A DNA stretch of 64,000 bases from Escherichia coli (GTDB lineage: Bacteria > Pseudomonadota > Gammaproteobacteria > Enterobacterales > Enterobacteriaceae). Location of the stretch: assembly GCF_013122565.1 (NCBI RefSeq), contig NZ_CP053258.1. One strand, written 5' to 3'. The position numbers and the translations under genes were made by a program. The notes beneath the pieces were generated by a model. That model saw only the letters and a list, made by a program, of their open reading frames with translations. It ran no database searches and had not been told where the DNA came from. Shown piece after piece: positions 18,553-21,795 of the stretch; the first letter of the stretch is position 1, and each line of letters begins with the position of its first letter.

Positions 18553-19718
18553 AAACTGTTTTTCACAGCTTATATATGATCAAATACTCCTTACATAAAT
18601 AAGGAGAACAAAATGGAACTTAAAAAACTGATGGAACATATTTCTATTATCCCCGATTACAGACAAGCCTGGAAAGTAGAATATAAATTGTCAGATATTC
18701 TACTATTGTCTATTTGTGCCGTCATTTCTGGTGCAGAAGGTTGGGAAGATATAGAGGATTTTGGTGAAACGCATCTCGATTTTTTGAAGCAATATGGTGA
18801 TTTTGAAAATGGTATTCCTGTCCATGATACCATTGCCAGAGTTGTATCCTGTATTAGTCCTGCAAAATTTCACGAGTGCTTTATTAACTGGATGCGTGAT
18901 TGCCATTGTTCAGATGATAAAGACGTCATTGCAATTGATGGGAAAACGCTCCGGCACTCTTATGATAAGAGTCGTCGCAGGGGAGCGATTCATGTCATTA
19001 GTGCGTTCTCAACAATGCACAGTCTGGTTCTCGGACAGATCAAGACGGATGAAAAATCTAATGAGATTACAGCTATTCCTGAACTTCTTAACATGATGGA
19101 TATTAAAGGAAAAATCATCACAACGGATGCGATGGTGTGCCAGAAAGATATTGCAGAAAAGATACAAAAACAGGGAGGTGATTATTTATTCGCTGTAAAG
19201 GGAAATCAGGGGCGACTAAATAAAGCCTTCGAGGAAAAATTTCCGCTGAAAGAATTAAATAATCCAAAGCATGACAGTTACGCAATTAGTGAAAAGAGTC
19301 ACGGCAGAGAAGAAATCCGTCTTCATATTGTTTGCGATGTTCCTGATGAACTTATTGATTTCACGTTTGAATGGAAAGGACTGAAAAAATTATGCGTGGC
19401 AGTCTCCTTTCGGTCAATAATAGCAGAACAAAAGAAAGAGCCAGAAATGACGGTCAGATATTATATCAGTTCTGCTGATTTAACCGCAGAGAAGTTTGCG
19501 ACAGCGATTCGAAATCACTGGCACGTGGAGAATAAGTTGCTCTGGCGTCTGGATGTAGTAATGAATAAAAGACGACTGCAAAATAGGAAGAGGAAACGTT
19601 CAGGGATAAGACATATTGCAATTAATATTTTGACGAAAGATAAGGTATTCAAGCACGGTTAAGACGTTCGATGAAGACAGCGACTACCTGCGTCAGTCTT
19701 TGTGAGGAGCGGACTCTA
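18553..19718 (+). mobile_element. H-repeat (ISAs1-family) element, near full length
   Basis: Contains the 349-aa H-repeat transposase ORF; its 5' flank (ttatatatgatcaaatactccttacataaataaggag) is repeated at about 21220 upstream of a decayed second copy. Boundaries are approximate. Confidence 0.75.
18613..19662 (+). CDS. H-repeat-associated (ISAs1-family) transposase, possibly C-terminally frameshifted
   Basis: 349 aa starting [32 protein letters not shown], matching recalled H-rpt proteins of Rhs elements and O-antigen clusters; the tail (…[13 protein letters not shown]…KHG*) departs from the recalled canonical C-terminus, which reappears out of frame after the stop. Confidence 0.8.
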
Positions 19719-19848
19719 GTAATCCAACTTTGTTGTTAGGTTTTACTCGCGGAATAATCATGGGCGAATTTTATTAAAAATGTATATTTTCCTAATTAAA
19801 AACATGTTTAAAAAAGAAACACAACTTTCAAGCTAGGTTACTTATGAT

Positions 19849-21012
19849 ATGAAGTCAACATATTCTAAAATTAAAATTGCACATGTTCAATTGATGCCAC
19901 TACTGAGTGGTGTTCAGCGAGTATCGTTACAAGAATTCGAATTATTACCAAATGAACAGTTCGACATTAATTTAATTTGCAAAGAGAGTGGACCATTAAC
20001 TGATTATTTAGATGATAGTGTAAGGGCTTTTTTTGTCCCGACATTATGTAGAAATATATCGCTCATAGAGGATATGAAATCATTAATATCTTTATATAAA
20101 TTATTGAAAAAAGAAAAATATGATATCGTCCATACACACTCCTCTAAAACTGGTATTCTAGGGCGGATAGCTGCGCGGCTGGCAGGAGTTCCTTGTGTAG
20201 TACATACTGTACATGGCTTTGCCTTTGAAAGCACAAAAAGAAAATCAGTAAAGCTCGTATATAAATGGCTGGAAATATTTGCAGCCAAATGCACTACCCG
20301 GTTAATTTGTCTTCATAATGAAGATAAAGAAATATGTATAAAAGAACTATATGTTGATCCAATGAAAATTTCTGTAATTCCAAATGGAGTTGATTTGGAA
20401 AAATTCGCTCCAGCAATTAATAAAGGAGACTTAAAAGAAAAAATATTAGGGTTAAAAAGAAATAGCTTTGTATTTACCATGGTGGGACGGTTGTGGCCAC
20501 AAAAAAATCCGTTATATTTTGCTGAAGCAGCAAAGTATATTATAGAAAATAACTTAATACCTGATTCAGTTTTTGTCATAGTTGGTGATGGGGAGTTGAT
20601 GAATGATTTAAAATACAATTATCAAACAGATATGAATTTAAAAAAAAGGTTATTACTTTTAGGCTGGCGAAATGATATCCCAAACATATTAAAAGCAAGT
20701 GACGTTTTTGTTCTTCCTTCTTTATGGGAAGGAATGCCTCTTGCCATATTAGAAGCTCAATCTACAGGGTTACCATGTATCGTTTCTAATATCAATGGTA
20801 ATAATTGTTTGGTTAAGAATGAATTTGATGGATTCTTAATTGAACTTAATGATATTGATAGCTTTATAAATGCGTTAGTTAGAGTGACAGACGATAAAGT
20901 CTTAAACATTATGTCAAAAAATTGCCGTAATAAAATTGTTAATGAATTTAATATAGTTAAAAGAGTGGATAAAATTAAAAATCTATATATTGATATGGTT
21001 GTTAATAAATGA
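19849..21012 (+). CDS. Glycosyltransferase, GT4 family (O-antigen)
   Basis: 387 aa ORF in AT-rich DNA; C-terminal GT4 motifs (…ASDVFVLPSLWEGMPLAILEAQSTGLPCIVSNI…). Specific acceptor/donor not assignable from sequence. Confidence 0.8.
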   Translation: MKSTYSKIKIAHVQLMPLLSGVQRVSLQEFELLPNEQFDINLICKESGPLTDYLDDSVRAFFVPTLCRNISLIEDMKSLISLYKLLKKEKYDIVHTHSSKTGILGRIAARLAGVPCVVHTVHGFAFESTKRKSVKLVYKWLEIFAAKCTTRLICLHNEDKEICIKELYVDPMKISVIPNGVDLEKFAPAINKGDLKEKILGLKRNSFVFTMVGRLWPQKNPLYFAEAAKYIIENNLIPDSVFVIVGDGELMNDLKYNYQTDMNLKKRLLLLGWRNDIPNILKASDVFVLPSLWEGMPLAILEAQSTGLPCIVSNINGNNCLVKNEFDGFLIELNDIDSFINALVRVTDDKVLNIMSKNCRNKIVNEFNIVKRVDKIKNLYIDMVVNK

Positions 21013-21204
21013 TTGTGTGCTTTTAGAAAGTTTATATCAATATCGCACTGTATATTTTATTTTATGTAAATTTATTATGAATATAAAGGCATGGTAATTC
21101 ACATCATTATTTATATACAGACGCTGTTATTGGTATAGAGAAATATCATATAACATTAGTTTTCGCACAAAATGTAAAAAATGAAAGATTTATTACTAAG
21201 TAAG

Positions 21205-21795
21205 ACTATTTTTGATAACCTATATATTATCAAATACTCTGTACATAAAGGAGGGAAATGGAACATGAAAAATAATAGTCGTATTTCTGTTAACCAATTT
21301 CAAACAACCTGGGAAAGTGGAACGTAAATTATTAGATATTTACTACTGATTATTTGCTCCTGCTTTGTCATTTCTGACGCAGAAGGATGGGAGTATACAA
21401 AGGATGTTTGTGAGACGTATGTCGATTTCTTGAAGCAATACGATGATTTGGGACATGGTACTCCTGTTCATAATACCATAGCTGAGTTCTATTCCGTATC
21501 AGTCCTATTAACTGGTTACGTGATGTTATTCTTCAGATTATAAAGACATCATTGCAGTAGGTGGAACTTAATAGCGGAGCAGAATAAAGAGTTTAAAATG
21601 ATATTCAATATTGTATCAGTTCTGATGGTTGTTTAAATTCTGAGAAGTCCGCGATCGTGATTTGAAACTGCTAGAATGTTGAGAATAATCTGCGCTGGTG
21701 TCTGGATGTAGTAATGAATGAAGAGAAGTGCTCAATAAGATAAGCAAAGCAGCTATGGACAGTGATTAGCCCGCATCAGTTCTTGCAGGGGGCGT
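21205..21795 (+). pseudogene. Decayed second H-repeat copy (internally deleted, frameshifted remnant of the ISAs1-family transposase)
   Basis: Direct comparison with 18553-19718: shared 5' flank and start (…atcaaatactctgtacataaaggagggaaatggaacatg…), shared internal stretches (gatttcttgaagcaata, ggtactcctgttcataataccata, ctggtgtctggatgtagtaatgaatg) and a recalled canonical 3' end (aaagcagctatggac…tcttgcagggg), but only about 0.6 kb long with stops in all frames. Confidence 0.7.

Follow-up and report, generated by a model that had tools for sequence, protein, structure and literature searches.

The first glycosyltransferase gene of the Escherichia coli O3 O-antigen cluster lies between two ISAs1-family (H-repeat) relics

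Relics of H-repeats at the junctions of O-antigen clusters are already known. In the Salmonella group D2 O-antigen cluster an H-repeat remnant lies at the recombination junction, according to the statement in PMC3715488 that cites Xiang et al. (1994). The E. coli O3 O-antigen cluster was itself published in 2008, as cited in a bioRxiv preprint (10.1101/2022.07.24.501295), and it shares with group D2 an H-repeat relic inside the cluster, at a boundary of DNA with different histories. The two cases differ in that D2 has two known parental clusters, to which the recombinant is near-identical, whereas no donor or parent is known for O3, and one of the O3 relics (copy B) is marked as a plain insertion and not as a junction. 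The H-repeat/ISEc1 copies of the E. coli Rhs elements (e.g. yhhI, K-12 RhsB) share their terminal repeats and transposase family with the other O3 relic (copy A). Compared with these, copy A has lost the C-terminus of the transposase and the right inverted repeat, copy B has diverged by about 23-25% and has internal deletions, and both reside in an O-antigen operon instead of an Rhs element. Composite transposons of the Tn5/Tn10 type likewise have two IS copies around a passenger gene; the O3 arms, however, are not near-identical, show no outer target duplication and occupy no second site.

We analysed a window of 64,000 nucleotides from E. coli contig NZ_CP053258.1 (Table 1). As judged from its sequence, the O-antigen cluster in the window is of the E. 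coli O3 type and is placed between galF and gnd. Sixteen complete genomes match its layout at 97-99% nucleotide identity, with the same locus, gene order and H-repeat copy A, and in these genomes wzx and wzy are annotated as O3 family flippase and polymerase; the location between galF and gnd together with O3-type wzx and wzy identifies an O3 Wzx/Wzy-dependent cluster. L-RhaNAc is confined to O3 according to a review (PMC7685785), which fits the three sugar genes at 25617-27969. More than 2000 E. coli genomes align to the window up to about position 18374, mostly at 99% identity or more, and diverge beyond it. The protein encoded by the first gene of the cluster is 99% identical to E. coli GT4 entries, and the GC content of the gene (about 31%) does not differ from that of the remaining cluster (28-32%). 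This gene lies between two dead ISAs1 (H-repeat) relics, which is an ordinary feature of a known kind. The first-pass annotation had rightly described a GT4 gene at the galF-proximal end of the cluster with directly oriented ISAs1-family H-repeats on both sides, an identification that Pfam and the annotation of other genomes bear out. The limits it gave for the two elements, 18553-19718 and 21205-21795, were correct as to location but not as to extent, which we redrew by alignment to the H-repeat of K-12 RhsB and to that of O88.

Table 1. Features of the O3 cluster and of its two H-repeat relics, in coordinates of the window.
Feature	Position	Strand	Evidence
galF, conserved left flank of the O-antigen locus	17185..18078	+	ORF; corresponding gene of a 98.9%-identical O3 genome annotated galF
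JUMPstart element with ops (GGCGGTAG at 18364-18371)	18337..18374	+	read directly from the sequence
H-repeat copy A, long form, ISEc1-like ISAs1 element	18378..19732	+	alignments to O88, K-12 RhsB and ydcC/yafV copies; NF033564
Copy A leader, starting with the outer left-inverted-repeat-like TAGGGGAAGATCA at 18378	18378-18468	+
Copy A inner left inverted repeat CAGGGAAAGATCA	at 18469	+
Copy A transposase ORF, 349 aa	18613..19662	+
Copy A right inverted repeat, decayed	~19714-19732	+
GT4-family glycosyltransferase, first O3 cluster gene, 387 aa, intact	19849..21012	+	ORF; Pfam PF13477/PF13439/PF00534; annotated GT4 in O3 genomes
TTATTGG, left 7-bp direct repeat of copy B	21127..21133	.	in register with the right copy
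H-repeat copy B, 680-bp ISAs1 relic, no ORF	21136..21815	+	alignment, blastn/tblastn, inverted repeats
TTATTGG, right 7-bp direct repeat of copy B	21817..21823	.
wzx, O3-family O-antigen flippase	21854..23377	+	ORF and annotation; RefSeq start at 21884
Three L-RhaNAc-type sugar genes	25617-27969
gnd, right limit of the O-antigen cluster	30042-31448

The transposase reading frame of copy A scores 376 bits against the NCBIfam model of ISAs1 family transposases (NF033564, cut-off 70), and the body of the element is 91-97% identical to ISEc1. Counted from its inner left repeat the copy measures 1264 bp, and from the outer one 1355 bp; the leader between them corresponds to that of the long form at ydcC and yafV. 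Compared with a 13-position consensus, the inner left repeat agrees at all 13 positions, the outer left at 11 and the right at 7. The transposase ends at a premature stop, with 349 aa versus 378 aa in intact ISEc1, and has an out-of-frame patch past residue ~318. The copy has a single ORF in the window, whereas it is annotated as two pieces in the one O3 genome examined (Ceylon31). The truncated transposase and the decayed right inverted repeat argue that copy A is transpositionally dead. Over its last ~170 bp the identity to ISEc1 is 66-91%, with deletions of 13 and 14 bp and two 1-bp indels. This stretch and the flank to its right are unusually decayed, a state equally compatible with the right end of the copy being a recombination joint. 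No recognisable target duplication surrounds copy A. Its right flank resembles the right flank of the O88 H-repeat only weakly (GTTGTTAGGTTTT versus GTAGCGTAGATTTT), too little for a decayed duplication to be called.

The left junction of copy A lies 3 bp past JUMPstart/ops. The same JUMPstart::H-repeat junction is carried by 51 of 5426 genomes, which belong to O3, to two O88 variants and to O63, and O176 matches it in part, at its start only. The first or downstream genes in the O88, O63 and O176 clusters are unrelated to the O3 GT4 gene. Moreover, the right junctions of the H-repeat differ among O3, O88, O63 and O176, and in each of the four the right end of the element is a boundary between DNA of different histories. 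Since the left junction is common to O88 and O63 (and its start to O176), copy A is part of the left edge of the locus and has no tie to the GT4 gene.

Copy B is carried by all 16 O3 genomes at 95-99% identity, and in the one O3 genome listed for the query no RefSeq feature lies under the match. The relic has lost ~480 bp from its middle, as well as smaller pieces, and retains transposase residues 35-79, 97-110, 281-325 and 357-374, distributed over three stop-containing frames; tblastn recovers these as four collinear fragments broken by stops and frameshifts (E = 7e-14 and 3e-10). Of its two inverted repeats, the left (TAGAGAAATATCA, 10/13) has decayed and the right (12/13) is well kept. The lack of an ORF argues that copy B, too, is transpositionally dead. 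It is 75-78% identical to copy A and, alike, to the copies of O88, K-12 RhsB, ydcC, yafV and O40 (H1). No closer relative was found in the E. coli genomes or plasmids searched, where the best plasmid match reached 72%, and a frameshift-corrected pseudo-protein matched only itself in the protein collection.

The flanks of copy B read GTTATTGGTA and ATTATTGGGT and share a 7-bp core, TTATTGG, in register, which would arise by chance with a probability of ~7e-4 in exact register and ~7e-3 if a slip of up to 2 nt is allowed. This repeat, which belongs to copy B itself, points to a simple insertion within the GT4-wzx spacer. Short target-site duplications, of 8-10 bp, characterise ISAs1 family elements. 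The O88 H-repeat is flanked by a repeat, GTAGCGT, of the same geometry as TTATTGG. Nonetheless, the 7-bp repeat lies 1-2 nt off the inferred ends of the element and five other ISEc1 copies have no flanking repeat, so that the target-duplication argument is suggestive rather than decisive.

Aligned globally, copies A and B are identical at 510 of 656 positions (77.7%), and blastn matches them far above chance (E = 7.5e-61 and 2e-23). Both hold an ISAs1-family DDE transposase, in copy B as fragments, and both have terminal inverted repeats of the CAGGG... type, decayed at the right end of A and the left end of B. Copy A has the length (~1.2-1.5 kb) and single ORF of ISAs1 elements; copy B is 680 bp long because of its internal deletions. 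The second region is thus an internally deleted H-repeat remnant, as had been proposed, and the suggestion that the same element occurs twice holds at the level of the family but not of copies, given that B is no nearer to A than to the five other full-length E. coli H-repeats. A 5' flank and start had also been described as common to both: the stretch is indeed shared, but it is the elements' own 5' untranslated region rather than a flank. Frequent loss of GT4 through recombination between A and B was considered and ruled out, as the longest exact word common to the two is 20 bp and the gene is kept in 16 of 16 O3 genomes.

In our judgement the two transpositionally dead ISAs1 relics of the O3 cluster are probably separate insertions that differ in origin. 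From the observed anatomy of the elements, their junctions, the synteny and the levels of similarity we infer an order of events. Copy A is a long-form H-repeat at the left edge of the locus, where a conserved flank meets serogroup-specific DNA. Copy B, a more diverged H-repeat, probably entered the GT4-wzx spacer by simple transposition, leaving the 7-bp duplication, and would then have decayed in place. Both relics are probably passive spacers on the sense strand, read through by the RfaH/ops-dependent operon transcript; such read-through is plausible since neither A nor B contains a terminator-like site on the + strand. They could, in addition, act as homology patches for later recombination.

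A relative of the cluster helps to weigh this account against others. One contig (L014), which is without insertion sequence, has the full set of nine O3 genes with their order unchanged (JUMPstart, GT4, wzx, GT2, wzy, three L-RhaNAc-type sugar genes, GT2, GT4, gnd), and its wzx is the nearest non-O3 wzx in the searched collection of 5.8 billion proteins. Given that GT4 stands directly before wzx in this IS-free contig, the GT4 slot is part of the architecture of the cluster type. With copy B and one copy of its repeat removed, the spacer expected in an O3 cluster would read ...GCTGTTATTGGGTGACTG...; when this rebuilt spacer was compared with the GT4-wzx spacer of L014, 361 of 500 shuffles reached its score, so that the alignment speaks neither for nor against an empty site.

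A recombinational swap of the first glycosyltransferase in the O3 cluster is possible. In its explicit form, an ancestral first glycosyltransferase would have been replaced by the GT4 of another cluster through recombination, with an H-repeat serving as portable homology or as an IS-made joint, at least on the left side, so that the relics would mark a glycosyltransferase swap and not a transposon; we regard this as rather unlikely. Eight of the nine L014 proteins are 48-83% identical to their O3 counterparts and the first GT4 is the lowest, at 40%, while at least 120 homologues, more than 100 of them from other genera, are nearer to the O3 GT4 than that of L014. These values would speak for an exchange, but the L014 GT4 is an orphan (51% to its best representative, around 40% and at most 44% to the others), and its low identity to O3 can therefore reflect a long branch instead of a replacement. 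GT4 homologues in other Enterobacteriaceae clusters adjoin the gnd end rather than the galF end, and copy A lacks a target duplication and has a decayed 3' end that looks mosaic, all of which is consistent with a swap. Set against this, the 7-bp repeat of copy B implies that GT4 and wzx were already adjacent when B arrived, and no donor was found.

The O40 cluster bears on the same question. Its first glycosyltransferase is the nearest relative of the O3 GT4 (70% aa identity) and is also flanked by H-repeats, in a layout that resembles O3 from galF through JUMPstart, H-repeat and GT4 to one or more further H-repeats; a third ISAs1 element makes a new joint, through its right end, with the remaining cluster, again as an exchange would lead one to expect. 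However, the remaining O40 cluster is unrelated to O3, the H1 copy is inserted ~40 bp further from ops than copy A, and the downstream elements are an ISEc1-type half and a 66%-identical ISAs1 element. At third codon positions the identity between the O3 and O40 GT4 genes is 53%, with silent sites near saturation, whereas the H-repeats that flank them are much less diverged (87% between A and H1, ~77% for B). The flanking H-repeats are therefore younger than the split of the two GT4 genes, and the O3 and O40 arrangements do not come from a single ancestral module, which counts against the exchange as well. We find it doubtful that JUMPstart-adjacent H-repeat relics act as portable recombination sites at which the first glycosyltransferase is repeatedly swapped, so that the GT4 genes flanked by H-repeats in O3 and O40 would both have arisen by one general route to new serotypes rather than by coincidence.

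The arrangement had been taken at first for a composite-transposon-like footprint bounding an acquired cassette. A true composite transposon, in which two copies of one ISAs1 element captured GT4 and moved it as a unit to the galF-proximal end, is very improbable. The direct orientation of the copies around a single gene would agree with it, as would the better preservation of the outer termini (A left 11-13/13, B right 12/13) than of the inner two (7/13 and 10/13). Nonetheless, the arms are not closely similar (77.7%), B being equidistant from every H-repeat tested, and the unit occurs in O3 genomes only, always at one site, rather than in more than one genomic context. The flanks at the outer ends (CGGTAGCGTATC and ATTATTGGGTGA) match over no more than 3 nt, hence the target-site duplication sought there is absent; the flanking repeat belongs to B alone. 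Furthermore, the left junction of A is found in clusters without the O3 GT4, and the IS-free relative already has a GT4 in the slot. The view that the second region is a fragment of some unrelated gene, or similar only by chance, to which the missing RefSeq feature might lend some colour, is hardly credible in view of the blastn match to copy A, the four collinear transposase fragments and the terminal CAGGGAAAGAT inverted repeat in which B ends.

IS relics inside O-antigen clusters serve as markers of the assembly of new serotypes. The O3 arrangement resembles a mobile cassette and is better explained by two unrelated insertions, a caution that the arrangement of copies alone is a poor ground for inferring a composite transposon. 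Modest by-products of the analysis are the corrected limits of the elements, a relic (copy B) under which the O3 genome checked has no annotated feature, a JUMPstart::H-repeat junction common to O3, O63, O88 and partly O176, and an IS-free comparator in L014. Should the recurrent pattern in O3 and O40 prove causal, a specific recombination route by which the first glycosyltransferase is exchanged would be indicated.

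The window is collinear with E. coli chromosomes from wcaL/wcaM through galF to gnd, and 18100-22000 has a full-length match in 16 complete genomes (97.3-98.9% identity); in every one of these the wzx annotation reads 'O3 family O-antigen flippase'. The O3 cluster is a published one (Ren et al. 2008, cited in bioRxiv 10.1101/2022.07.24.501295). Its first glycosyltransferase family 4 (GT4) gene, intact in the window and covered by a single GT4-family annotation in 14 of the 16 O3 genomes, lies between two ISAs1-family H-repeat relics, A upstream and B downstream. Relative to Ceylon31, the closest complete O3 genome, the window lacks the yefM-yoeB toxin-antitoxin pair (41527-41746; a 219-bp REP-like spacer in place of 659 bp) and tsuA/tsuB (yeeE/yeeD; 45249-45323; 74 bp in place of 1521 bp); neither missing segment has a match elsewhere in the window.

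Features of the galF-gnd interval in gene order, with identity of the O3 proteins to those of L014, an O3-like contig
Feature	Position (nt)	Remarks	Identity to L014 (aa)
galF	17185-18078
JUMPstart/ops	18337-18374	after galF
H-repeat A		between JUMPstart/ops and first GT4
A, leader	starts at 18378	second repeat-like sequence TAGGGGAAGATCA; ~90 bp upstream of canonical repeat
A, canonical left inverted repeat	18469	CAGGGAAAGATCA
A, right end	near 19732
First GT4	19849-21012	between A and B	39.7%
H-repeat B	21136-21815	between first GT4 and wzx; terminates in a right inverted repeat that is well preserved (its reverse complement is CAGGGAAAGATAA)
wzx		downstream of B	47.9%
GT2		after wzx	61%
wzy			51%
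Sugar gene 1		UDP-L-RhaNAc type	83%
Sugar gene 2		UDP-L-RhaNAc type	54%
Sugar gene 3		UDP-L-RhaNAc type	54.5%
Second GT2		after sugar genes	58%
Last GT4			50%
gnd	30042-31448

The first-pass annotation was right to see H-repeat copies flanking the GT4 gene, although its limits (18553-19718 and 21205-21795) are corrected here. The boundaries come from alignments to the O88 cluster copy, the K-12 RhsB H-repeat (yhhI) and two Rhs-linked copies, at ydcC and yafV; the long-form leader of A is also present in the last two. The relationship between A and B is clear (blastn E = 7.5e-61 and 2e-23; 510/656 positions, 77.7%, identical in a global alignment), and no further H-repeat DNA was found in the window. 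The 5' flank said to be common to both copies is part of the element itself, its motifs lying in the 5' untranslated region. Copy A has a 7-bp tandem duplication (CAGGGAA CAGGGAA, 18462-18475) at its inner left inverted repeat, absent from the O88 copy.

Both copies are decayed, and their parts had been correctly identified: the 349-aa ORF of A scores 376 bits against the NCBIfam ISAs1 transposase model (cut-off 70), and B holds transposase fragments. The body of A is 91-97% identical to ISEc1, and its last ~170 bp 66-91%, with deletions of 13 and 14 bp and two indels of 1 bp. As a result, the transposase is out of frame over one patch and stops early (349 aa vs 378). The right inverted repeat has decayed to 7/13. 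While A carries one ORF in the window (18613-19662), the Ceylon31 annotation splits it into pieces of 289 and 72 aa; the relic is thus still gaining different lesions across strains. B retains residues 35-79, 97-110, 281-325 and 357-374, spread over three frames and interrupted by stop codons, and has no equivalent of A 18934-19417. B matches A at 75-78% identity and five other full-length H-repeats just as well, and it has no closer relative in 5426 E. coli genomes or the plasmid collection; A and B are therefore members of one family rather than sister copies.

The conserved JUMPstart (>2000 genomes) ends at 18374, hence H-repeat DNA begins 3 bp past it. An 86-bp probe across this junction found it in 51 of the 5426 genomes (16 O3, ~30 O88 in two variants, 5 O63); O176 has only its first part. 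Past the H-repeat, the O88, O63 and O176 clusters encode acetyltransferases, sugar-modifying enzymes and other glycosyltransferases, with no relative of the O3 first GT4 among them, and the right-hand H-repeat junctions differ in all these clusters. As a common left junction is followed by unrelated genes, A belongs to the left border of the locus, at the change from conserved flank to serogroup-specific DNA, and is not tied to GT4. Such a role has long been proposed for H-repeat relics of O-antigen clusters, with Salmonella group D2 as an example (PMC3715488); according to a review of E. coli, 23 clusters contain mobile elements, out of 178 serogroups (PMC7685785). In O63 (L017, 7044-8816), the O3-type junction is followed by a 72%-identical ISAs1 fragment before the first sugar gene, making two tandem relics without an intervening gene.

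One relative of the cluster has no insertion sequences. In a collection of 5.8 billion proteins, the nearest non-O3 homologue of the O3 wzx (48% identical) is encoded on L014 (Logan ERR14048323), a 10-kb contig running from the galF end and JUMPstart to gnd with the nine O3 genes in identical order and no H-repeat. Its first GT4 directly precedes wzx (115-bp spacer), and a GT4 in that place is therefore part of the O3-type architecture; this layout agrees with a later insertion of B in the GT4-wzx spacer. The flanks of B, GTTATTGGTA and ATTATTGGGT, share a 7-bp core in register, which turns up at a frequency of 7e-4 (7e-3 with a slip of ≤2 nt) when pairs are drawn at random from this AT-rich region. 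At the intact O88 H-repeat, GTAGCGT is placed in the same way and duplicates part of the ops region; among the clusters with the JUMPstart::H-repeat junction, only O88 has kept a duplication. No flanking repeats were seen at five other ISEc1 copies. The repeat around B points to a simple insertion without proving it. L014 carries four tandem AATAATGTAAAT-like units between JUMPstart and the first glycosyltransferase (~395-430).

A recombinational swap of the first glycosyltransferase in an O3-type cluster is allowed by several points. Against L014, none of the nine genes is as poorly conserved as the first GT4, which is more similar (45-52%) to at least 120 homologues of Vibrio, Aeromonas, Providencia and others than to its L014 counterpart. 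Its nearest relative (70% aa, 73% nt) opens the O40 cluster (L006); that gene is also ISAs1-flanked (H1, GT4, H2, H3), and O40 otherwise shares nothing with O3. Homologues (44-62%) are the last glycosyltransferase before gnd or gne-gnd in three E. coli and Salmonella clusters (L009, L010, L024) without insertion sequences, making the galF-proximal place in O3 and O40 unusual for this subfamily. However, the L014 GT4 is an orphan (best representative 51% identical, the rest ≤44%, among 1.84 billion proteins), and its low identity may reflect a long branch.

The first-pass annotation read A-GT4-B as a footprint resembling a composite transposon that marks an acquired glycosyltransferase cassette, a reading that is not supported. 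Against the consensus, the outer termini are well preserved (18378-18390, 11-13/13; 21800-21815, 12/13) and the inner ones decayed (19714-19732, 7/13; 21136-21148, 10/13), as expected of a composite transposon, but these are only four ends and nothing else speaks for it. The outer flanks, to the left of A and to the right of B, have no duplication in common (best match 3 nt), B has its own 7-bp repeat, the copies are not sisters, and the left junction of A recurs ahead of unrelated genes.

Evidence also stands against one mobile module shared by O3 and O40: third codon positions of the two GT4 genes are only 53% identical, while the flanking H-repeats are 87% (A vs H1) and ~77% (B) identical and lie at different nucleotide positions, indicating that each flanked arrangement formed independently, after the two genes had split; we also count the orphan status of the L014 GT4 against it. 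In O40 (L006, 9208-11151) the ISAs1 elements are nested: ISEc1-type H2 is interrupted at 9847 by full-length H3, of another lineage (66% nt identity) with both inverted repeats intact. The right flank of H3 is not H2 sequence; the right end of H3 thus meets the remainder of the O40 cluster at a new joint.

A and B lie in the operon sense orientation and contain no plus-strand terminator-like site; an ops-dependent transcript should run through both into GT4 and wzx. Since their longest common exact word is 20 bp, deletion of GT4 by recombination between them should be rare. H-repeat relics in an O-antigen cluster are a known kind of feature, here in a published cluster. Mildly new are relic B, left without an annotated feature in the O3 genome examined, the JUMPstart::H-repeat junction common to several serogroups, the insertion-sequence-free relative L014, and the parallel between O3 and O40.
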